Assembly (NCBI GenBank): GCA_964479535.1
Contig: CAYZMM010000001.1
Span: 327,902 to 391,901 of the forward strand
DNA length: 64,000 nt
Reading direction: 5' to 3'
Source of the DNA: an uncultured Thermodesulfobacteriota bacterium
Lineage (GTDB): Bacteria > Desulfobacterota > DSWW01
Within the stretch, counting starts at the first letter, position 1. The number at the start of each line of letters is the position of its first letter. Below the pieces are notes generated by a model that saw only the letters and a list, made by a program, of their open reading frames with translations, had not been told where the DNA came from and did not search any database. Shown here piece by piece: positions 14,455 through 58,202 of this stretch. A program made the translations under genes and the position numbers.

Positions 14455-14660
14455 AGGGACTCGACATCTTCGCTCTTGGACCGGGATGCCTGCAGGTTGA
14501 GCTTTCGGATCCGGTCGTAAAGCTCGTCTCGGTAGATTCCCTTTTCCTCCGGGGCCTTGACCCCGATCCGCACCTGCCCGTCTCGAACCTCCAGGACCTG
14601 AATCCGGATGTCATCCCCGATCCAGAGCCCCTCTCCCGACTTCCTTGTCAGAACGAGCAT
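14451..14660 (-). CDS. csrA: carbon storage regulator CsrA
   Basis: MLVLTRKSGEGLWIGDDIRIQVLEVRDGQVRIGVKAPEEKGIYRDELY. Confidence 0.9.
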   Translation of the reverse strand: MLVLTRKSGEGLWIGDDIRIQVLEVRDGQVRIGVKAPEEKGIYRDELYDRIRKLNLQASRSKSEDVESL

Positions 14661-14692
14661 CGCCTTCCCTGGCCGACAGACGGTTTCTCTAC

Positions 14693-21084: not shown

Positions 21085-21122
21085 GGGGCCTTTGCCCTTT
21101 GCCCTTTGCCCTTTGCCCTCAC
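21085..21122. repeat. heptad tandem repeat (CCCTTTG)x4 on plus; minus-strand (mRNA-sense) GGGCAAAGGGCAAAGGGCAAAGGG G-quadruplex-type motif in flgG-flgA spacer
   Basis: Direct reading; four G3 tracts with 4-nt loops. Confidence 0.6.
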
Positions 21123-22822: not shown

Positions 22823-23164
22823 CTACCCGGAAGTGCTTTCCCCGTGTTCCGGGTTGGTCTCCCCTACCGCAGGGGCCTGACCATCCGGGAATGCCTCGCT
22901 CTTCAACTCGTAGAGAAAGGCGTAGATCTCGGCGATGACGCGGTAGAGTTCCTCCGGGACCTCCTGATACAGGTCCAGGCCCATGAGGGCTTCCACGAGC
23001 AAGGGATCCTCTCGAAAGGGAAGGCCCTTGCCCCTTGCCTCCTCGATGATCCTTTCGGCGAGCCACCCCTTCCCTTTCGCCACGACCCGCGGAGCATCGT
23101 CCCGGTCCCCGTCGTATCGCAGGGCGACGGCCCTTTCACTCTTCTTACCCGTACGACTCGACAA
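22823..23164 (-). CDS. FlhB C-terminal domain homolog (YlqH-like small flagellar biosynthesis protein)
   Basis: AVALRYDGDRDDAPRVVAKGKGWLAERIIEEARGKGLPFREDPLLVEALM...IPEELYRVIAEIYAFLYEL. ORF track N-terminus is junk; probable TTG start at 23164 after GGAAGGGG. Confidence 0.7.
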   Translation of the reverse strand: MSSRTGKKSERAVALRYDGDRDDAPRVVAKGKGWLAERIIEEARGKGLPFREDPLLVEALMGLDLYQEVPEELYRVIAEIYAFLYELKSEAFPDGQAPAVGETNPEHGESTSG

Positions 23165-24113
23165 ACCGGACCCCTTCCAACTCGGCTCGCAGACCCTCGG
23201 GCACGCCTCGCGAAACACGCACCTTCGACCCGGCAACGCCACCCTCGGCGAGCCGTTCCTCCAGTTTATGGGCCCCCTTCCGCAGGACGGAAAAGGCAAC
23301 GGGACCTGCACAGAAGTGTACGTCCACCCTCCTCGGGCTCCAGGTCACGGTTACGAGCAGTTCTTCGACCTCGAGGAAGGGGACTCGAAACACCACCATG
23401 ACTTCACCGTGCCGGGCGCCCCGGAATCTCTTGAGGGCCCCTTCGACGACCGTGTCCTCCCCGAAGGGAAGCCAGAAGGGGATCGGCCCCTCGGGGCCCC
23501 CCTGGAGAGAGAGGAGCTGCTTCACCTCCACCTGCTTCAGGGCGGCACGAATCGTCTCCCGAATGGACGGGACGGGATGATTCTCGGACTCCCGCAGCAG
23601 GAAGCCCTTCAGGTCCTCCGACACCGAAAGGGGGGCTCTCTTTCCCAATACCTCCCGTACCCTCGCCTCGTAAAAAAGGCCGCAGTTCAACAGGGCCCCG
23701 CGCACCGCTTCTGCGGTGCGGCAGTCCGTCACGAACCCGGGAGGCAGGGAGCCGGTCGACAAGAGCGTTCTCAGCAGGGAGAACAGGGGGGTCTTCAGGG
23801 TTTGCCTCTGCGCAAGCAGCGATTCGACCGCATTGGCCGGTATCGGCCTGGACAGGAACTGAATGAGACCCCTTTGGATTCTCACCTCCGCGAGATACCG
23901 TCCTCCCTCCTCCAGGGGAAATCGGCTTTCCACCGAAAAGGACTCCTGCCGGACCTGGATCAGGTACCGATTACCGGGCAGGCTCTCCAGGACCCGGAAG
24001 GCGACCCTGTCTCCGTGCCTGAAGAGACCGCCCCCGGAAAGACCCGTCTTCCGGACGGACGGCACCTGGAGTTCACCGACTGCCGCTGCGCTCTTCTCCC
24101 CTGTGGACATCAT
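23145..24113 (-). CDS. FliK-like protein (putative Flg_hook C-terminal domain)
   Basis: C-terminus GEVMVVFRVPFLEVEELLVTVTWSPRRVDVHFCAGPVAFSVLRKGAHKLEERLAEGG resembles the hook-length control domain. Position upstream of YlqH-like as in Firmicutes. Confidence 0.4.
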   Translation of the reverse strand: MMSTGEKSAAAVGELQVPSVRKTGLSGGGLFRHGDRVAFRVLESLPGNRYLIQVRQESFSVESRFPLEEGGRYLAEVRIQRGLIQFLSRPIPANAVESLLAQRQTLKTPLFSLLRTLLSTGSLPPGFVTDCRTAEAVRGALLNCGLFYEARVREVLGKRAPLSVSEDLKGFLLRESENHPVPSIRETIRAALKQVEVKQLLSLQGGPEGPIPFWLPFGEDTVVEGALKRFRGARHGEVMVVFRVPFLEVEELLVTVTWSPRRVDVHFCAGPVAFSVLRKGAHKLEERLAEGGVAGSKVRVSRGVPEGLRAELEGVRFVESYG

Positions 24114-33178: not shown

Positions 33179-34199
33179 GGACTTTCTCGGCTCCTCTTGC
33201 GGCTCCACTTCTCTTCTCCTTGCTCGGGTTTTGTTCCACGGAAAGGACCTCGATGGCATAGTTGCCGTTCCTCTGCCCGGCTACACACGTGCCTTTCGGC
33301 ACCTCCTGCACCTTCAGGACCATCGGGTCCTTCGGGCCGACGGTGAGGGGCAGGATGTCGTCCTCCTTCAGGTTCAACAGTTCCCGGAAGGTGATCTCCG
33401 AATTGCCCAGCTCCGCACTCATTTCCATCGCTATCTCGCGGAGGTGAGCGGACAGGCTCTGTTTCCAGGCCTCGTCCGTATCCGTGTCCTCGGAGGGGAG
33501 GCGTCCGTACAGGATGTCCTTGACCGGATCGATCGAAAGGTATGGGATACAGTAACCCATCACGGCCTGATCCAGCTCCATGTCCACCTTGAAGGTGCTC
33601 GCCATGACCAGGTCCGGTGGCTGCACGAGATTGACGAATTGGGGGTTCGACTCGGACCGGATCTGTTGAAGGGACACCTCCCCCACAACCGACCACGCCC
33701 TTTCGAGGGCCCGGAAACAGACCTGGAGAAGCCGCCGGATGAGGCGGCATTCCATGGTGGTGAAGTCCCTCCCCTTGATCTCCGCGACGAGCCTTCCGGA
33801 CCCTCCGAAGAGGATGTCCACCATGAGCGAGATCATCTTCGCCTCGAAGAAATAGAGACAGGATCCACGAAGCGGGTCTGCCCTGTACACATCCAAGGAG
33901 GCCCTCTCCGGCATCTTTCTGAGGAACTCCTCGTACTTGAGCAGCTCGAAGCTCTCCACCGAGACATCCACGATTCTGCCCATGAACTCGAACAGGGCGT
34001 CGGTCGCCTCGCGGGCGAACTTCTCGTTCACGACTTCCATGGTGGGCATGCGGGCGTGGACCGCCCGGTCCTGACTGAAGAAGTCGAACGAGGTCGCTTC
34101 CGGCGTCTCCGGCTCCACGGGGGCTTCCGTTTCGATGTCGCCGTCCGACAGCCCTTTCAGAAGGGCATCCACTTCTTCCTGTGAAAGCAGCTTTCCCAT
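33114..34199 (-). CDS. fliM: flagellar motor switch protein FliM
   Basis: MGKLLSQEEVDALL N-terminus (CheY-P binding LSQEEVDALL motif), 361 aa. Confidence 0.9.
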   Translation of the reverse strand: MGKLLSQEEVDALLKGLSDGDIETEAPVEPETPEATSFDFFSQDRAVHARMPTMEVVNEKFAREATDALFEFMGRIVDVSVESFELLKYEEFLRKMPERASLDVYRADPLRGSCLYFFEAKMISLMVDILFGGSGRLVAEIKGRDFTTMECRLIRRLLQVCFRALERAWSVVGEVSLQQIRSESNPQFVNLVQPPDLVMASTFKVDMELDQAVMGYCIPYLSIDPVKDILYGRLPSEDTDTDEAWKQSLSAHLREIAMEMSAELGNSEITFRELLNLKEDDILPLTVGPKDPMVLKVQEVPKGTCVAGQRNGNYAIEVLSVEQNPSKEKRSGAARGAEKVHDRGGDPLDRSIFTDRTADAA

Positions 34200-34202
34200 T
34201 TT

Positions 34203-34697
34203 CTACTGCACCACGAAATCGGTGAAATAGACTTCCTTCGCCTTCCCTTCCCCCAGAATCCGATTCAGACGGAAGAGGATCTCTTCGCGAAGCCTGGCCT
34301 TCCCCTCGAGGGTACCGATCTCATCGTACTTCTTGCTCGAAAGGAGCACGATGAGGCTGTCACGGATCTTCGGCGTCTTCTTCATGATCTGATCTTCCGT
34401 GAGGTCCCACACCTCTACGTCGAGCCGCACCTTCAGGTACCGGACCCCTTTCTCATCGAAGAGATTGACGATGAAGGGGTCGAGCTGGAAGATGAATCCC
34501 TCTTCTTCCTGCACGACCGTCTGTTCCGGCACGGTCGTCTTCGCGTCCGCCGGATCGGTGGAAAGCACCTTCCAAACCAGTACGCCGTTGATGCCGGCCA
34601 GGATCAGAAATCCGACGGCCAGTCCGATGAAGAGCATCTTCCTGCTCTTGGGCGGCGGCGTATCCTGGGTCGCCGCTGCAGTCTCCTCCGGTGCCAT
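34203..34697 (-). CDS. fliL: flagellar basal body-associated protein FliL
   Basis: ATG at 34697 preceded by AAGGAGG. TM IGLAVGFLILAGINGVLVW and conserved C-terminal region. Confidence 0.8.
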   Translation of the reverse strand: MAPEETAAATQDTPPPKSRKMLFIGLAVGFLILAGINGVLVWKVLSTDPADAKTTVPEQTVVQEEEGFIFQLDPFIVNLFDEKGVRYLKVRLDVEVWDLTEDQIMKKTPKIRDSLIVLLSSKKYDEIGTLEGKARLREEILFRLNRILGEGKAKEVYFTDFVVQ

Positions 34698-34754
34698 GAC
34701 AGCCTCCTTACGCCGTATGGAATTTCGTACCTCTCGAGCGCACCTCAGGAGAAA

Positions 34755-34769
34755 GCAACCCCTATGCCA
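34755..34769 (-). promoter_or_regulatory. sigma-54 promoter (revcomp TGGCATAGGGGTTGC) for the fliL...fliA operon
   Basis: Consensus spacing; ~45 nt upstream of fliL ATG. Confidence 0.55.
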
Positions 34770-34885
34770 ATTCCGGCGCAGAGGTATCTGTTTGATACTG
34801 TTGAGCAATTTGTGCAGAGGCGACCACGGGGGAGTCAAGGTTGTTCGGGTGGGCAGTCAGAATAATGACGGGGCGAACGGAGTAG

Positions 34886-34996
34886 GACAAAGAGGAAAGG
34901 TCAAAGGGGAAAGGGCGAAGGACAAAGGACAAAGGGGAAAGGGCGAAGGGGAAAGGGCGAAGGACAAAGGACAAAGGGGAAAGGGCGAAGGGCGAG
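34886..34996. repeat. purine-rich heptad tandem array (units GGGAAAG / GGCGAAG / GACAAAG; 14-bp GGGAAAGGGCGAAG x4 interleaved with GACAAAGGACAAAG x2) upstream of the fliL sigma-54 promoter
   Basis: Direct reading of 34886..34996; multiple G3-G4 tracts on plus strand. Confidence 0.6.
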
Positions 34997-35060
34997 GTGC
35001 CGGGGTGCGCGCCGGTACTCGAGAGCTTTGACAGGTAGACGCGGAGACGCCCCTGGGGAA

Positions 35061-35088
35061 CGGCGGGGCGCATTTCAGCGCCCCGCCG
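35061..35088 (-). terminator. GC-rich stem-loop (CGGCGGGGCGC-ATTTCA-GCGCCCCGCCG) 12 nt after flgE stop; putative terminator/attenuator or mRNA 3' stabiliser (no U-tract)
   Basis: Perfect 11-bp inverted repeat with 6-nt loop. Confidence 0.4.
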
Positions 35089-35100
35089 AAGGAGCGAGGA

Positions 35101-46227: not shown

Positions 46228-47580
<1,353 letters not shown>

Positions 47581-50642: not shown

Positions 50643-50767
50643 GGGCTCGGTTCCGCTCGCAGGGACCCTCCTGCGGCTCGAAAAGGGCTCTCTGGTTTTC
50701 ACGCCCCGCAGCAAACGGCCCGCTCCGGGACCGCGGCGCGACGCACTCTCGCCGACTCCAGGGTTTA

Positions 50768-50782
50768 GCAACTTCTGTGCCC
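50768..50782 (-). promoter_or_regulatory. sigma-54 promoter (revcomp GGGCACAGAAGTTGC) upstream of TPR-HK-RR operon
   Basis: GGCAC-N6-TTGC with consensus spacing, ~125 nt upstream of the TPR gene start. Confidence 0.5.
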
Positions 50783-50864
50783 GTAGGGTGCTTGAGTGAA
50801 AAGTTTTTCTAGAATAGAGGGTTGTGACGGTCCGGGATTCGGGGGAGAGTCAATAGAATGACGA

Positions 50865-52257: not shown

Positions 52258-53844
52258 ATGAGCCTCCTGGACGGGTCGGTCGTCGTCGCATACCTGTCCG
52301 CCATGATCGGGCTGAGCGTCTACCTGGGCAGGTCCCAGTCCAGCGAAGTGGATTACTTCGTGGGGGGGCGCAGACTGCCGTGGTGGGCCATCGGCCTGTC
52401 GACCATGGCGACCCAGACGTCCGCCATCAGCTTCATCTCCATCCCCGCCTTTGTGGCGTTGCGACCCGGCGGAGGTCTGACCTGGCTCCAGTACGAACTC
52501 GCCGTTCCGCTCTCGGTGGCCCTGGTCATGGGCTTGTTCCTTCCCTTCTTCCGGAGGCTTCAGCTGGTGAGCGTGTACGAATACCTCGAATACCGCTTCA
52601 GCCCTTCCGTGCGAACCCTGGTCAGCCTGATCTTCCTGGTGAGCCGGGGCCTCGGCACGGGCGTCGCCGTCTATGCGAGCGCCATCGTTCTGTCCGTCTG
52701 TCTCGGCCTTCCCCTCTGGACGACCATTCTGATCATCGGCATCGTTACCCTCGTCTATGACACACTCGGCGGGATCTCGGCCGTGGTCTACTCGGACGTC
52801 ATTCAGATGGTCATCCTGGTCGCCGGCATCCTGCTCTGCCTGGTCTACGCGGTGGGCGATCTCGGGGGCATCGAGGCCGCACTGCACTCCTTGCCGAAAG
52901 AACGACTTCGCGCCATCGATGTGAGCACCGGATTGGGCGACGGTGGAGCCGTACCGCTCTGGGCCTTCCTGGTCGGCGGGTTCTTTCTCTACGCCTCCTA
53001 TTACGGCACCGACCAGAGTCAGGTCCAGCGTGAATTGTCCGCCGCTACAGCGGATGAAACGAGGCTTTCCCTGATGTTCAACGGGTTTGCCCGTTTTCCC
53101 CTCACCGTCCTTTACGCGGCCCTGGGCCTCGTCGTCGGCGCCGTCTACGGCCTCTCGCCCGAGTTGCGCGCAAACATTCCCGGGGACAGACCGGACTATT
53201 TGATTCCCCAGTTCATTCTCCTTCATCTTCCCCCGGGGATACGGGCCATTCTCTTTTCGGCCATCCTCGCCTCCGCCATGTCGAGTCTGGACTCGGCCCT
53301 GAACTCCCTCTCCGCCTCCACCCTTCGAGACTTCATCAAGCCCCGTGGGAAGGACGCCCGATCGGTCCTGATCCTCAGCAAGCTCACGACGGTCGCCTGG
53401 GGAACTGTGGTCACCGCCTTCGCCTTCCTGGTCGGCCGGATATCGCCGACCGTCATCGAATCCATCAACAAGATCGGATCCGCCTTCTTCGGGCCCATCC
53501 TCGGCGCCTTTCTGGTTGGGGTGCTGTCCGTGAAGGGCACCTCGGCCGGGGTCCTCGCCGGCATCCTTGCGGGCGTGATCCTGAACCTCGCTCTCTGGTT
53601 CCTCGTCCCGGTCGTTCACTGGATGTGGTGGAACTGTTTCGGATGCCTGACGACCGTCGGCGTGGCTCTCCTGGTCAGCACCATACACCCCTCCGCCCCA
53701 GCGAAGAGGGCGCGGCATTACGTGCTCCGCGGCACGGGTCTGCTGCGGGCAGAGCGCCGCCGGCTTCCAGCCTATCTGTCGCTGGCCGTCTACTTCCTCC
53801 TGATACTCGCCTTGCTCTCCTTCTCGGGAACCTTCAACCACTGA
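52258..53844 (+). CDS. sodium:solute symporter family (SSF) transporter
   Basis: ~13 TM segments. ATG at 52258 with GGAGGG SD (ORF track starts 52228). Confidence 0.85.
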   Translation: MSLLDGSVVVAYLSAMIGLSVYLGRSQSSEVDYFVGGRRLPWWAIGLSTMATQTSAISFISIPAFVALRPGGGLTWLQYELAVPLSVALVMGLFLPFFRRLQLVSVYEYLEYRFSPSVRTLVSLIFLVSRGLGTGVAVYASAIVLSVCLGLPLWTTILIIGIVTLVYDTLGGISAVVYSDVIQMVILVAGILLCLVYAVGDLGGIEAALHSLPKERLRAIDVSTGLGDGGAVPLWAFLVGGFFLYASYYGTDQSQVQRELSAATADETRLSLMFNGFARFPLTVLYAALGLVVGAVYGLSPELRANIPGDRPDYLIPQFILLHLPPGIRAILFSAILASAMSSLDSALNSLSASTLRDFIKPRGKDARSVLILSKLTTVAWGTVVTAFAFLVGRISPTVIESINKIGSAFFGPILGAFLVGVLSVKGTSAGVLAGILAGVILNLALWFLVPVVHWMWWNCFGCLTTVGVALLVSTIHPSAPAKRARHYVLRGTGLLRAERRRLPAYLSLAVYFLLILALLSFSGTFNH

Positions 53845-53879
53845 CGCCGGCATCAAAACCGCAAGGAAAGGAGTGTCCA

Positions 53880-56800
53880 TTGTACACGGAACAGGCCGGA
53901 GACCACGAGGGCGGTGCCCTCCGCTTCGAGGGCTTGGAAATCGGGGCCGTCTCGGTCAAGTGGGTGGGCCGGGCTTCTTCGGGAACCTCCAGCATCGAAG
54001 TGGAGCGCCATGAAGGCAACCCGCGAGAGACGACGAGGAGGATCCTCGCCCGGCAGGAGGCAGGACCGTCGTCTCGCATGGTGGTCACCGGTCAGCCCGC
54101 CAGGCTCCTCATGGACCTGCCCTACCGCCCGGAAACGGAGTGCATCGAACGGGCCCTCTCCCATCACGGCCTGAAACCGGACATGCTTCTCTCCCTCGGC
54201 GGAGAGACCTTCAGCGTCTACCCGCTGAAGGAGGGAGCCGTGAGGAACGTGATCTCCACCTCCAAGTGTGCCGCCGGTACGGGGGAGTTCATCGTCCAGC
54301 AGTTTCAACGAATGGGCATGACCCTGGAGAGAGGCCTGGCAGAGGCCCGCTCCGGAAGCCTCGTACAGATGGCGACCCGATGCTCGGTCCACTGCAAGTC
54401 GGACGCCACCCATAAGCTGAACAAGGGCGAGTGCGGTCCCGGTGATATTGCTCGATCCCTGGTGAACGATCTTGCGAAGAAGGTGAGCGAACTCGTTGAA
54501 CGGACTCAGTGGCCGGTCGGTTCGATCGTGCTCTGCGGGGGGGTCTGCAGGAACGGCCTCTTCGTGGAGCGTCTGCGAGGATTCCTGCACCGGTCGGAAG
54601 TGATCATCCTCGAGGAAAGCCCCTATCTGGAGGCCTTCGGGGCCAGCCTTTTCGCCTCCGACCCCCCCCACGACCCCTCCCCGTCCTCGCCTGCCGGACG
54701 GTTCCGAACCGCCAGGCCCACCTTCTCCAGGTTGAAACCCCTGGCCGAGGCGGAACCCCTGCTCGACTTCAGGGTGGGTTCGGGGCAACGAGACGCTGTT
54801 CAAGAAGGAGGAACGTACGTCCTCGGCATCGATGCGGGGTCGACCACCACCAAGGCCGTGCTCTTCAACCGCGACGACGGCTCCATCGGTGCGAGCGCCT
54901 ATCTTCGTACCCTCGGAAACCCGGTTCGGGCAACACGGGCGTGCCTGGAGCAGCTGATCGAAGAGGTGGGCGAGGCCTCCATCGCCATGGTTCAGGCCGG
55001 CGTGACCGGTTCGGGCAGGGAACTGGTCTCTGTCTATCTCGACAACTGTCCCAGCTTCAATGAGATCCTGGCCCACGCCCGTGCCGCTGCGGAGGAGGTC
55101 GCGGATGTGGACACCGTCTTCGAGATCGGCGGCCAGGACTCCAAGTATATTTCCTTTCTCGACGGAGTCCCGGTGGACTACGCCATGAACGAAGGGTGCT
55201 CGGCCGGCACGGGGAGCTTCGTCGAGGAGTCCGCCTCTGTGGACATGGGTGTGCCCATGGAGCAGATCAGCGACATGGCCGCGGCAAGCCTGCAACCCAT
55301 CGCCTTCGGCGAGCGATGTGCCGCCTTCATCAACACCGACTTGAGGAACGCCCTGCAACAGGGGGTGCCCCGCGAGGATGTGATCGGCGGATTGGTCTAC
55401 TCGGTTGCGGACAACTACCTCTCCCGAATCGTCGGCGGGCGCCACGTAGGCGGGAACCTCCTCTTCCTCGGTGGTGTCGCCCTGAATCGTTCCGTCGCCC
55501 TCGCCATGGCGGCCCGCACCCGGAGGAGGTTGGTCGTGCCCCCTCGCCCCGAGCTCATGGGCTGTGTCGGCGTGGCTCACATGCTCCTCGACAGGCTTCG
55601 GGAACAGGAACTGCCAGAGCGACCCATGGCGCTGGCGTCCCTCCTGCAAAGCGGGATGGAGGCGAAAGAACCGTTCCGGTGCTCATCGTGCGAGAACAGC
55701 TGTGAGATCCGGCGGATCCATGTCCGTGGCAGGACGTATCCCTTCGGAGGGCTCTGCTCCAAGTATGAAATCCTGCGACATCGGGGGACCTCCGGGGAGG
55801 ACGGCAGAGACCTGGTAGCCCTCCGCAACCGCCTGATGTTCGAGGAGTACGGACCCGATGCCGCGCATACGGGTCGAGGCACCATCGGCATCCCCATGGC
55901 CCTGACCACCTACTCTCTCTTCCCCTTCTACGTGAAGCTCATCCAGGAGCTGGGCTATGAAGCGGTTCTGTCCAGGCCGTCGAAGTCGGGCGAGACGAAG
56001 CGGACCGCCTCGATCTGCTATCCCTGCGAGATCATGCACGGCGCGGTGCATGATCTGTTCGAACGCAAAGTCGGCTACGTACTGCTTCCCCATGTGATCG
56101 AGATGGACGGACCGGAGCGATCCCTTCACGACTACACGTGCCCATCCACTACCCAGATTCCGGACATCATAAGAGCCGCTTTCGACTCGACGACGGAACG
56201 TTTGCTCGCTCCCCACATGGGCCTTTCGGAGCCCCTCAGGAACACCACGGTGAAGGAGGTCGGCAGGCTTGGCCCGAGACTCGGACTGCACGAAGCGCAG
56301 GCGCGCGAAGCGGCCGAAGTGGCGCTGGCCCATTACGACCGGTTCCGGCAGGCATGCCTCGAAGAGACGCAAGAGGCCTTGAGAGGCCTCGGAGAGGAAC
56401 CGACCGTCATCCTCGCGGGCCGGCCCTATACGATCTGTTCCTCGGAGGTGAATCTCTCCCTGCCGAGGAAGATCGCCAGCAGGGGGTACCACGTCGTCTC
56501 CGCCGACATGCTGCCCCGGCTGGACGATGCATCCCCTCCGAGAGACGTCTGGCACTTCACGCAGCAGATCAGCAACGCAGTCGCCCACGTTCGGCAGAAC
56601 CGCCATCTGTATCTTTGCCTGGTCTCATGCTTCTCCTGCGGCCCGGACAGCAGCATGTACCATTTCTTTCGCCACCGGCTTGCAGGGCGAACCTTCTGCT
56701 ATCTCGAGATCGACTCCCACACCGCTCACGCCGGCTTCGAGACACGCCTCGGGGCCTTCCTGGACCTCATCGAAGAGCAGCACCGCAGGAGTGAGCGGCC

Positions 56801-58202
56801 CTCACGAACGAAGACCTCGTCGCCCCGGGCCACGGCCCCCCCTTCTCCTCCACAGGGGAGACAGGCCCGCCTTTCGGACACCCTGGATTTCATCGTGGAC
56901 GAGCGAGGCAGCCGGGTTGAGTACGATGACCCGCGCATCGTACACGTATGGACGACCCCTCACAGCCCGTACGCGCTGCGTATGATCGAAAAGGTGTACG
57001 AGACCCGCACACCCGGCTTCCGGGGTGCGGGCAGGACGCGTCCGGAAACCATGCAATATGCGAGAAGACTCTGCTCCGGCAGGGAGTGCGTGCCCATGAC
57101 GGCCACCGCAGGGGCTGCGCTGGAAGACATGGAAACCCGTCGCGGGGAGGACGAGATCACGATCTACTTCGCCCTGGATCAGGAAGGGCCCTGTCAGAAC
57201 GGGGCCTGGCCGCTCGTGTGGGAAACCATCGGAAAGAGACTCGGCCTGGGAAACGTGATCTGCGGCGTGTGGCCTTCCGCCCGGAACAACTACCTGGGGC
57301 TCGGCAACGACTACAACCTTCTCACAAACGCATGTCTGTTCCTCGGCGACATGTTCGATGAAGCGAGGAACGCACTGGCCTGCCTCGCCCCGGACAGGGC
57401 GTCTGCCCTGCAGGTCTTCGAGGAGGCCTTCGTCACCTTCCTGAAACGCTTCGGAGAGAACGGCGACAAGGCCCTCGACCCCGCCCTGGCGGAGTGGGCC
57501 GATAGGGTGTCCCGAGTTCCCCTCAAGGCAACGCCGCAACGGACCCCGAAGGTGCTCATCCTGGGCGGGTTGAACCTGCTCTTCGTTCACGACCCGGTCA
57601 CCGACTACCTCCTGGAGCAGGGCATCCTGCCGAAACTCGTCCCCTACTCGGAAAGCCTCTGCTGGCTCGCCGCGGAAACCGTCGTGCGGCACGGCTTTCG
57701 TCACGGCCTGATCACGCCCCGGGAGCAATATTCCCACAAGCCGCCCAGGGCGAGCCGGGAAGAGGCGCTCGCCTTCCGGCAGTCGCGATTCAACGTAACC
57801 CTGGTCACTTCCGTGGAAAGGCGGTTTCGAAACGTCATGGATGCGTCCGGCCTGATGTTCGACGAGCCTGTTCCCTTTCTGGAGATCGCCGAAGGGGGGC
57901 ACCCGTACGCCTCTCACATCGGGTTTACCGAAACGACGGTCACCACCGGCCGGTTCGTCTGCTCCGTCGACAGGGGCCTCTATGACGGCCTCGTGAACCT
58001 CGGATCCTTCAACTGTCAGCCTGCCATGAACGCCCAGGCCATCATCCGTCCTCTTGCAAACAGGGCGGACATGCCCTATGTGGCCCTCGACTGTGAAGGG
58101 CCCTGGCTGTCCACCAGCCAGATCAAGCTCCTCGAGGCCCTGGTCGTCCAGGCGAGAAGGAACCACAGGAGGAAGAGCCGGCCGGCACCATCGCCCGGGT
58201 AG
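53880..58202 (+). CDS. giant fusion protein: two tandem BadF/BadG/BcrA/BcrD (HgdC-type, ASKHA) activase ATPase domains + ~800-aa C-terminal DUF2229-like region with CxxCxxxC motif
   Basis: Two copies of the motifs LGIDAGSTTTK / CAAGTGEF(SF)VE / GGQD / LGG...NR. C-terminal FRCSSCENSCEI. Likely TTG start 53880 after AAAGGAG (ORF track 53625 overlaps the symporter). Confidence 0.8.
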   Translation: MYTEQAGDHEGGALRFEGLEIGAVSVKWVGRASSGTSSIEVERHEGNPRETTRRILARQEAGPSSRMVVTGQPARLLMDLPYRPETECIERALSHHGLKPDMLLSLGGETFSVYPLKEGAVRNVISTSKCAAGTGEFIVQQFQRMGMTLERGLAEARSGSLVQMATRCSVHCKSDATHKLNKGECGPGDIARSLVNDLAKKVSELVERTQWPVGSIVLCGGVCRNGLFVERLRGFLHRSEVIILEESPYLEAFGASLFASDPPHDPSPSSPAGRFRTARPTFSRLKPLAEAEPLLDFRVGSGQRDAVQEGGTYVLGIDAGSTTTKAVLFNRDDGSIGASAYLRTLGNPVRATRACLEQLIEEVGEASIAMVQAGVTGSGRELVSVYLDNCPSFNEILAHARAAAEEVADVDTVFEIGGQDSKYISFLDGVPVDYAMNEGCSAGTGSFVEESASVDMGVPMEQISDMAAASLQPIAFGERCAAFINTDLRNALQQGVPREDVIGGLVYSVADNYLSRIVGGRHVGGNLLFLGGVALNRSVALAMAARTRRRLVVPPRPELMGCVGVAHMLLDRLREQELPERPMALASLLQSGMEAKEPFRCSSCENSCEIRRIHVRGRTYPFGGLCSKYEILRHRGTSGEDGRDLVALRNRLMFEEYGPDAAHTGRGTIGIPMALTTYSLFPFYVKLIQELGYEAVLSRPSKSGETKRTASICYPCEIMHGAVHDLFERKVGYVLLPHVIEMDGPERSLHDYTCPSTTQIPDIIRAAFDSTTERLLAPHMGLSEPLRNTTVKEVGRLGPRLGLHEAQAREAAEVALAHYDRFRQACLEETQEALRGLGEEPTVILAGRPYTICSSEVNLSLPRKIASRGYHVVSADMLPRLDDASPPRDVWHFTQQISNAVAHVRQNRHLYLCLVSCFSCGPDSSMYHFFRHRLAGRTFCYLEIDSHTAHAGFETRLGAFLDLIEEQHRRSERPSRTKTSSPRATAPPSPPQGRQARLSDTLDFIVDERGSRVEYDDPRIVHVWTTPHSPYALRMIEKVYETRTPGFRGAGRTRPETMQYARRLCSGRECVPMTATAGAALEDMETRRGEDEITIYFALDQEGPCQNGAWPLVWETIGKRLGLGNVICGVWPSARNNYLGLGNDYNLLTNACLFLGDMFDEARNALACLAPDRASALQVFEEAFVTFLKRFGENGDKALDPALAEWADRVSRVPLKATPQRTPKVLILGGLNLLFVHDPVTDYLLEQGILPKLVPYSESLCWLAAETVVRHGFRHGLITPREQYSHKPPRASREEALAFRQSRFNVTLVTSVERRFRNVMDASGLMFDEPVPFLEIAEGGHPYASHIGFTETTVTTGRFVCSVDRGLYDGLVNLGSFNCQPAMNAQAIIRPLANRADMPYVALDCEGPWLSTSQIKLLEALVVQARRNHRRKSRPAPSPG

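Follow-up and report, generated by a model that had tools for sequence, protein, structure and literature searches.

Whether a long array of purine-rich heptads standing upstream of the flagellar gene fliL has a role in the expression of that gene, and how such an array came to be there, are the questions raised by a 64,000-nucleotide stretch of DNA (the window) from an uncultured Thermodesulfobacteriota bacterium. An initial sequence-only reading had recognized the array and proposed it as the location of a sigma-54 enhancer, or as a spacer of variable length between activator sites and promoter, with some potential for non-B DNA structure. We compared the locus with 12 related loci (L001, L054-L058, L108-L110 and L116-L118) taken from metagenome contigs and metagenome-assembled genomes (MAGs), in which FliL is 74-86% identical to that of the window where identity is listed; the protein collection contained no relative above 86% FliL identity. 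The reading that we prefer, with a probability of roughly 0.62, is that the array is a lineage-specific, G-rich heptamer repeat which grew by slippage and duplication within a dispensable spacer and which has no sequence-specific regulatory role.

The heptad array and its genomic setting

The window has a G+C content of 62.5% and contains a large flagellar gene cluster encoded almost entirely on the minus strand. Pfam matches identify fliK (37159-38553), flgD (36440-37096) and the hook protein gene flgE (35101-36390, minus strand; FlgE_D2, Flg_bbr_C and Flg_bb_rod), the last of which lies upstream of the spacer that houses the array. On the other side of this 403-bp spacer is fliL (34203-34697, minus strand; Pfam FliL), with its ATG at 34697 preceded by the Shine-Dalgarno sequence AAGGAGG at 34703-34709. 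Also identified by Pfam in the window are fliM, fliN, fliP, a PAS histidine kinase, a FliA-like sigma factor, flagellin, FliW and an NtrC-type sigma-54 activator gene (46228-47580). Two further minus-strand genes are missing from the composition-based gene map: csrA, at about 14458-14667 and adjoining fliW, and a small ORF resembling the FlhB C-terminus within 22823-23311. A doubled CCCTTGC at 23025 falls inside the latter ORF and was accordingly discarded as an array.

The array occupies 112 bp (34885-34996) and consists of 16 units of the form GGNNRAA on the plus strand, which bears out the purine-rich heptads first described at this site. The first eight units are, in order, GGACAAA, GAGGAAA, GGTCAAA, GGGGAAA, GGGCGAA, GGACAAA, GGACAAA and GGGGAAA, and the remaining eight are GGGCGAA, GGGGAAA, GGGCGAA, GGACAAA, GGACAAA, GGGGAAA, GGGCGAA and GGGCGAG; on the minus strand, in the sense of the genes, the main units read CTTTGTC, CTTTCCC and CTTCGCC. 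Tandem Repeats Finder reports a period of 7 at 34884-34993 (15.7 copies, 74% matches) with the consensus AGGGCAA, equivalent to GGGCAAA, as well as a period of 14 and a period of 42 (2.6 copies, 95% matches, score 197). The 14-mers noted earlier are present in the numbers given for them, with four copies of GGGAAAGGGCGAAG (starting at 34907, 34935, 34949 and 34977) and two of GACAAAGGACAAAG (34921 and 34963). At the highest level of this hierarchy, 34906-34947 and 34948-34989 are identical 42-bp copies in exact tandem duplication, and this is the most recent duplication step of the array.

In composition and periodicity the array is exceptional for this DNA. It is 89% purine, and its tract is the only 60-nt stretch in the 64-kb window that is at least 90% purine or pyrimidine. 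Self-similarity at a lag of 7 singles out only the array and the region 21085-21122, and lags of 5, 6 and 8-11 gave no signal in the window. The pattern GGGCAAAGGGCAAA, allowing up to two mismatches, matches the window 15 times against 0.44 expected, and all of these matches are within the array and 21085-21122.

The array is real, and its unit number is that of the window's own assembly. Two short-read contigs of the same strain (L053 and L107, run SRR7048227) encode FlgE and FliL identical to those of the window and both terminate within the array; 59 of the array's 31-mers are absent from both. Public assemblies tend to break in the flgE-fliL spacer, where L053 ends and where L107, L112 and L111 start, the last of these opening with the adapter-like sequence GCTCTTCCGATCT.

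The array is also non-coding and lies between the co-oriented genes flgE and fliL, both on the minus strand. Two pseudo-ORFs that run through it, 34762-35073 (minus strand) and 34399-35031 (plus strand), were rejected on two grounds: the relatives do not conserve them, and L109 and L110 lack the spacer. The first of these had already been called an artefact, rightly so, as it has no counterpart in the relatives, whose spacers differ or are absent, and one false ORF can thus be removed from the annotation. Rfam returned no family for the window at gathering thresholds, only chance-level matches at E values up to 10, and no family in eight related loci at E values up to 0.1. A scan of both strands of 34000-35600 found no sigma-70 promoter, and in the same interval all terminator-like matches from an intrinsic terminator scan were inside genes.

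Conserved elements on either side of a variable segment

Reading along the minus strand, the flgE stop (35101) is followed by a hairpin (35062-35087), the array (34885-34996), a palindrome (34856-34869), a second box (34830-34842), the fliL promoter (34754-34769) and the fliL ATG (34697). The array is therefore distal to palindrome, second box and promoter alike: it is 15 bp from the palindrome, 188 bp from the fliL start codon and 116-227 bp upstream of the sigma-54 promoter, close to the 120-240 bp initially given. That promoter is genuine. Its sequence, TGGCATAGGGGTTGCT, has no mismatch to the consensus and is identical in the closer relatives (L001, L054-L058, L108, L109, L110 and L111), with substitutions in the more distant L112 and L116-L118. 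The window contains 11 matches to sigma-54-type promoters against 1.9 expected; nine are on the minus strand, and most of these precede flagellar operons. Sigma-54-type promoters on the minus strand are found at 1632, 8079, 10578, 22728, 34754, 38537, 46164 and 50767.

Across the related loci the elements that are conserved are the flgE hairpin, the palindrome, the second box, a ATCAAACAGATA-like box, the promoter, the leader and the Shine-Dalgarno sequence. The palindrome, GTCATTATTCTGAC (minus strand), is kept in those relatives whose spacer sequence reaches that far and is centered about 119 bp upstream of the estimated transcription start. Only two GTCA-N6-TGAC palindromes occur in the window, at 34856-34869 and 50849-50862, and both are upstream of sigma-54-type promoters, which makes the palindrome near fliL the best enhancer candidate. 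The second site (GTCATTCTATTGACT...CCCGAA) is about 75 bp upstream of the promoter at 50767-50782, and the two share the form GTCATT-N4-TGACT...CCCGAA, in each case 75-95 bp upstream of the promoter. From these sequence features we conclude that 34856-34869 is probably a binding site of a sigma-54 activator and that the two modules likely represent a putative activator binding module. Toward the promoter follow the second conserved box AACCTTGACTCCC (34830-34842, minus strand) and, between palindrome and promoter, the ATCAAACAGATA-like box recognized in the alignments (34785-34796, minus strand), whose position resembles that of a site for the DNA-bending protein IHF; such an identity would be one of position only.

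These observations do not agree with the regulatory roles first suggested for the array. The better candidate for an enhancer is the conserved palindrome together with AACCTTGACTCCC, which sit between array and promoter, whereas the array is neither conserved among orthologous promoters nor dyad-symmetric and was rejected as a sigma-54 enhancer. Since the palindrome and AACCTTGACTCCC are between the array and the promoter, with the array upstream of the palindrome, the array is also not a variable spacer between activator sites and promoter. A contingency-locus repeat was likewise rejected, as the array is outside any ORF and does not separate functional promoter elements. For annotation, the likely activator site of fliL shifts to the palindrome at 34856-34869, with a paralogue at 50849-50862.

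At the other end of the spacer, just past the flgE stop, is the conserved hairpin GGCGGGGCGC-TGAAAT-GCGCCCCGCC (35062-35087, minus strand). A flanking C-G pair (35088/35061) extends its stem to the 11 bp that were scored, and these are 100% paired in all eight alignable relatives, four of the pairs showing compensatory changes. No U-tract follows the hairpin.

The segment between this hairpin and the palindrome varies in both sequence and length, from about 5 to 260 bp, and each of the 12 related loci either lacks the array or has something else in its place. L109 and L110 have a spacer of 218 bp without repeats, in which AATTT-CCCCGTCAT directly follows the hairpin; the two loci lack precisely the entire repeat element. 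The spacers of L117 and L118 are also free of repeats, and that of L116 contains a hairpin which is not built of repeats and differs from the others. The array is thus dispensable in relatives. The remaining seven loci (L001, L054-L058 and L108) carry short repeats, mostly heptamers, arranged as the two complementary arms of a long imperfect hairpin. The arms are of the types GGTGAAA and CCTTTGA in L056 and L108, GTTAGCT and AGCTAAN in L054 and L055, TCAGGTN and NACCTRA in L057 and L058, and, as hexamers, CTCGTC and CGAGGA in L001. Fold z-scores of the long hairpins in these seven relatives range from -4.5 to -7.2. The two arms change together: AAGGTCAAAGGTGAAAGG in L056 corresponds to AAGGGAAAAGGTAAAAGG in L108, with three positions differing and both arms altered. 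An origin of these hairpins from MITEs was not indicated, as 200 kb of loci from the clade contained no second copy. The window is different in this respect, with a fold z-score of -1.5 for the spacer and of +0.45 and -0.95 for longer stretches on either strand; its array consists of direct repeats only, and no inverted arms and no pairing partner were found.

Origin and structural potential of the array

The units of the array can be traced to these hairpins. The promoter-proximal arm of L108 ends in ...CCCTTCGCCTTTCCCCGTCAT, which equals the window 14-mer CTTCGCCCTTTCCC with a one-base indel; L056 carries CCTTTGACC in the same comparison of proximal arms, and CTTTGTCCTACT is common to L001 and the window. 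From the match to the L108 arm and the sequence shared with L001 it follows that the window array is the promoter-proximal arm of an ancestral repeat-arm hairpin, and it therefore originated from a pre-existing unit. We propose that replication slippage and tandem duplication enlarged this arm from a few units to 16, passing from 7 to 14 to 42 bp, and that the distal arm was lost in this genome, which would leave the array with nothing to pair with. The array would then sit in a dispensable, fast-evolving spacer bounded on one side by the 3' hairpin of flgE and on the other by the true activating site of the fliL promoter. Any effect that it has would be structural and independent of its exact sequence, and may arise from a propensity for G-quadruplex or i-motif formation, from a hypermutable length, or from an unstructured CU-rich tail on flgE read-through RNA. 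Slippage is in this account the presumed generating process, and the array most likely has no specific function. Taken together, the related loci and the window offer a natural series of empty site, repeat-arm hairpin and one-armed expanded array, and this series illustrates the rise and turnover of G-rich heptamer repeats at a fixed intergenic position.

The structural potential of the array was part of what had been proposed for it, and it holds for the quadruplex rather than for the triplex. A canonical G-quadruplex motif, GGGGAAAGGGCGAAGGGGAAAGGG, is matched by regular expression on the plus strand at 34934-34957, which is the template strand of the flagellar genes; its G4Hunter score of 2.0 is the top plus-strand value of the window, in which five other regions reach an absolute value of 2. 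Runs of at least three G occur in 9 of the 16 units, and they make up this one canonical motif only. Triplex (H-DNA) formation was rejected as weak, given that purines run uninterrupted for no more than 13 nt and mirror arms for no more than 9 nt. Quadruplex capacity is not a conserved property of the locus, because the units of the relatives are mostly not G-rich. The strongest C-run of the window is elsewhere, at 54643-54698 (G4Hunter -2.68), inside a 1525-aa ORF (53625-58202).

The main rival to a repeat without specific function is a structure-forming insulator or 3'-end element, which would stop or process read-through from flgE and thereby shield the enhancer and promoter of fliL or stabilize the flgE mRNA. 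In the relatives this element would take the form of the long hairpin, and in the window that of a G-quadruplex on the template strand with an i-motif opposite, placed behind the flgE hairpin. In its favor, seven relatives have long hairpins at the same place, with arms altered in concert, and the flgE hairpin, which covaries yet has no U-tract, makes read-through plausible. The G-quadruplex motif is on the template strand for flgE transcription, and a precedent is known from H. influenzae, where RNase III cuts a long RNA hairpin that has the (ATCTTTC)n repeat as one of its arms (PMC12721329). However, L109, L110, L117 and L118 have the first hairpin alone, the array of the window has lost its pairing partner, and units of the relatives such as AGCTAAN and ACCTAAT have no G-quadruplex capacity. 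The read-through transcripts are themselves presumed. On balance we regard an insulator or 3'-end element as unlikely, with perhaps one chance in a handful of being right. For the window itself, two models taken from the H. influenzae hmw system were rejected: an hmw-type hairpin was rejected on the z-scores of the window (-1.5, +0.45 and -0.95), the hairpin being present in L054-L058, L108 and L001, and an hmw-type repeat of a 5' untranslated region was rejected as the array is more than 115 bp upstream of the -24/-12 promoter.

The reading as a slippage-grown repeat also has observations against it. Repeats or hairpins recur at this single spot in many lineages, and this recurrence, together with the concerted changes of the arms, hints at selection for structure rather than pure neutrality. 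In addition, the arrays of the same genome have a unit in common, and other genomes have other units, which purely local slippage does not explain.

A second array in flgA and the remaining alternatives

The second array is the other region singled out by the lag-7 analysis. It reads (GGGCAAA)4, followed by GGCCCC, at 21091-21118 on the minus strand, and is thus in the sense of the mRNA at the 5' end of flgA, in frame with the 279-aa FlgA. The relation first seen between the two tracts stands as far as the unit is concerned, with the same consensus (AGGGCAA being GGGCAAA) and each of the three main units on the fliL side one substitution away from GGGCAAA; what had gone unnoticed is that the arrays are on opposite strands. 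The flgA array lies 60-90 nt past the ATG that follows the flgG stop, and the NCBI gene call starts flgA at that ATG (P0069, 279 aa), so that this array, unlike the one on the fliL side, lies inside an annotated ORF. In L115, L117 and L118 the ATG directly starts a normal FlgA signal peptide, with no heptads, whereas the window, L113 and L114 have exactly four G-rich heptads inserted in frame after the FlgA ATG. The heptads are GGGATCA and GGGGTCA in L113 (10059-10095) and L114 (1522-1557). Gain or loss of one unit in the flgA array would shift the reading frame. The array is also a perfect (G3N4)4 quadruplex motif on the mRNA strand (21095-21118). It prompts hypotheses of control of flgA by frameshift or quadruplex, and of pairing between the two arrays.

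Such pairing would join the CU-rich tail of a flgE read-through mRNA in trans to the (GGGCAAA)4 of the flgA message, coupling FlgA to transcription of the hook genes. The genes concerned are co-oriented, and the arrays on their sense strand are complementary to each other; where both loci are available (the window, L001/L113, L116, L117 and L118 only), two genomes have an array at each locus and three have none at either. The unit moreover changes in step at the two loci, being GGGCAAA here and GGGGTCA in MAG PL23a_bin.76; L113 and L001 belong to the same MAG contig, and its fliL spacer holds CCTGACCCCCGACCCC, the complement of its own flgA unit. Duplex energies were calculated from 36-nt queries, as folding of full-length duplexes gave giant artificial duplexes. 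The flgA array of the window forms with its own fliL-side array a 19-nt helix, G-U pairs included, of -50.6 kcal/mol, compared with -29 to -40 kcal/mol with the spacers of other genomes; the flgA array of MAG PL23a_bin.76, (GGGGTCA)n, reaches -53.6 kcal/mol with its own spacer (CCTGACCCCCGACCCC) and -31 to -49 kcal/mol with others. The cognate duplexes (-50.6 and -53.6 kcal/mol) are thus stronger than the non-cognate ones (-29 to -49 kcal/mol). If pairing is true, synthesis of the P-ring chaperone FlgA would be tied to hook-gene transcription, and the flgA (GGGCAAA)4 could otherwise form an RNA quadruplex. Against this, only two genomes have both arrays, and a G-rich sequence opposed to a C-rich one always gives strong energies, as in L113 against L056 (-49.4). 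Transcription of the fliL-side array is only presumed, and a shared unit needs no pairing to be explained, given the genome-specific heptad families known from many loci (PMC4692102, PMC2700814). We consider trans pairing improbable.

An even smaller probability is given to the array as an auxiliary, low-affinity landing pad for the sigma-54 activator. The array is 15 bp from the conserved palindrome, and its unit TTTGACC, like the TGACCCC and CCTGAC of relatives, resembles the TGACT half-site. However, 15 of the 16 window units contain no TGAC, the 7-bp units are repeated head to tail and form no dyads, the relatives do not conserve the array, L109, L110, L117 and L118 being free of any repeats, and the paralogous module at 50849-50862 has no adjoining array. 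Finally, a plus-strand, GGA-rich small RNA sequestering CsrA can be set aside as extremely improbable, for although the 112 nt of the array hold 10 GGA motifs, where the background mean is 2.5, and csrA and fliW are in the cluster, other 112-nt stretches of the window hold 9-11 such motifs, those of the array fall outside hairpin loops in an unstructured fold, GGA is missing from the repeats of the relatives, and no promoter-like site on either strand, no terminator and no Rfam match were found for such an RNA.

Comparison with known heptamer repeats

The lineage-specific repeat that we prefer finds its closest known class among the G-rich heptamer repeats already described in bacteria, of which the window array is a member. 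According to Mrazek et al., as cited in PMC4679880, most of the surveyed prokaryotic genomes that are rich in repeats have the heptamer as their commonest repeat unit of 5-11 nt, and such repeats are proposed to arise by slippage of the polymerase. Rehm et al. 2015 described quadruplex-forming, G-rich heptamers (GGGAATC and GGGGA(C/T)T) in Xanthomonas and Nostoc, which have 2-26 units with a strong preference for four, a genome-specific unit and no known function (PMC4692102). These repeats are found between co-oriented genes and keep their position while length and sequence vary in close species, and they can form stem-loops when inverted (PMC4692102). The array resembles them in its tandem 7-bp units with G-tracts, in its non-coding location between co-oriented genes and in the varying length and sequence at the same locus in relatives, and the preference for four units is matched by the flgA array, L113 and L114, which have exactly four. 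It differs in that only 9 of the 16 fliL-side units have at least three G and in that the units of relatives are often not G-rich; dispersal of the unit amounts to two arrays here, judged within 64 kb only.

A similar element is known from Geobacter metallireducens, in which GGGACCG occurs in four tandem copies at 49 loci and which also has MTYCTGA x5 sites (Aklujkar et al. 2009, PMC2700814). Some of these heptamer elements are inverted pairs, and they are uncharacterised (PMC2700814). In common with the present case are a deltaproteobacterial-type genome and G-rich heptamers in four copies located between and within genes, whereas the unit sequence is another one, the fliL-side array has 16 copies, and two arrays are known here within 64 kb.

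Other systems share individual features with the array. The (ATCTTTC)n repeat of Haemophilus influenzae hmw adjusts adhesin expression by way of RNase III from within a mapped 5' untranslated region (PMC12721329). Both are pyrimidine-rich heptamers on the sense strand with a length that is hypermutable, presumably so in the array, and the repeats of the relatives, like that of hmw, make up one side of a long hairpin with a G-rich opposite arm; unlike the hmw repeat, the array is upstream of a sigma-54 promoter and is unpaired in this genome. The TAACTGA heptamers of Beggiatoaceae and cyanobacteria stand within a few nucleotides of the start codons that follow them, at 169 loci and with 2-6 copies (MacGregor 2015, PMC4679880). 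They too are intergenic direct repeats of a heptamer, and the NACCTRA and AGCTAAN of the relatives resemble NANCTRA, but the array is 188 bp from the start codon. With the sigma-54 enhancers bound by NtrC, FlrC, FleR and FlbD the array shares a range of positions upstream of a -24/-12 promoter; those enhancers are conserved dyad sites, a description that fits the palindrome at 34856-34869 and not the array.
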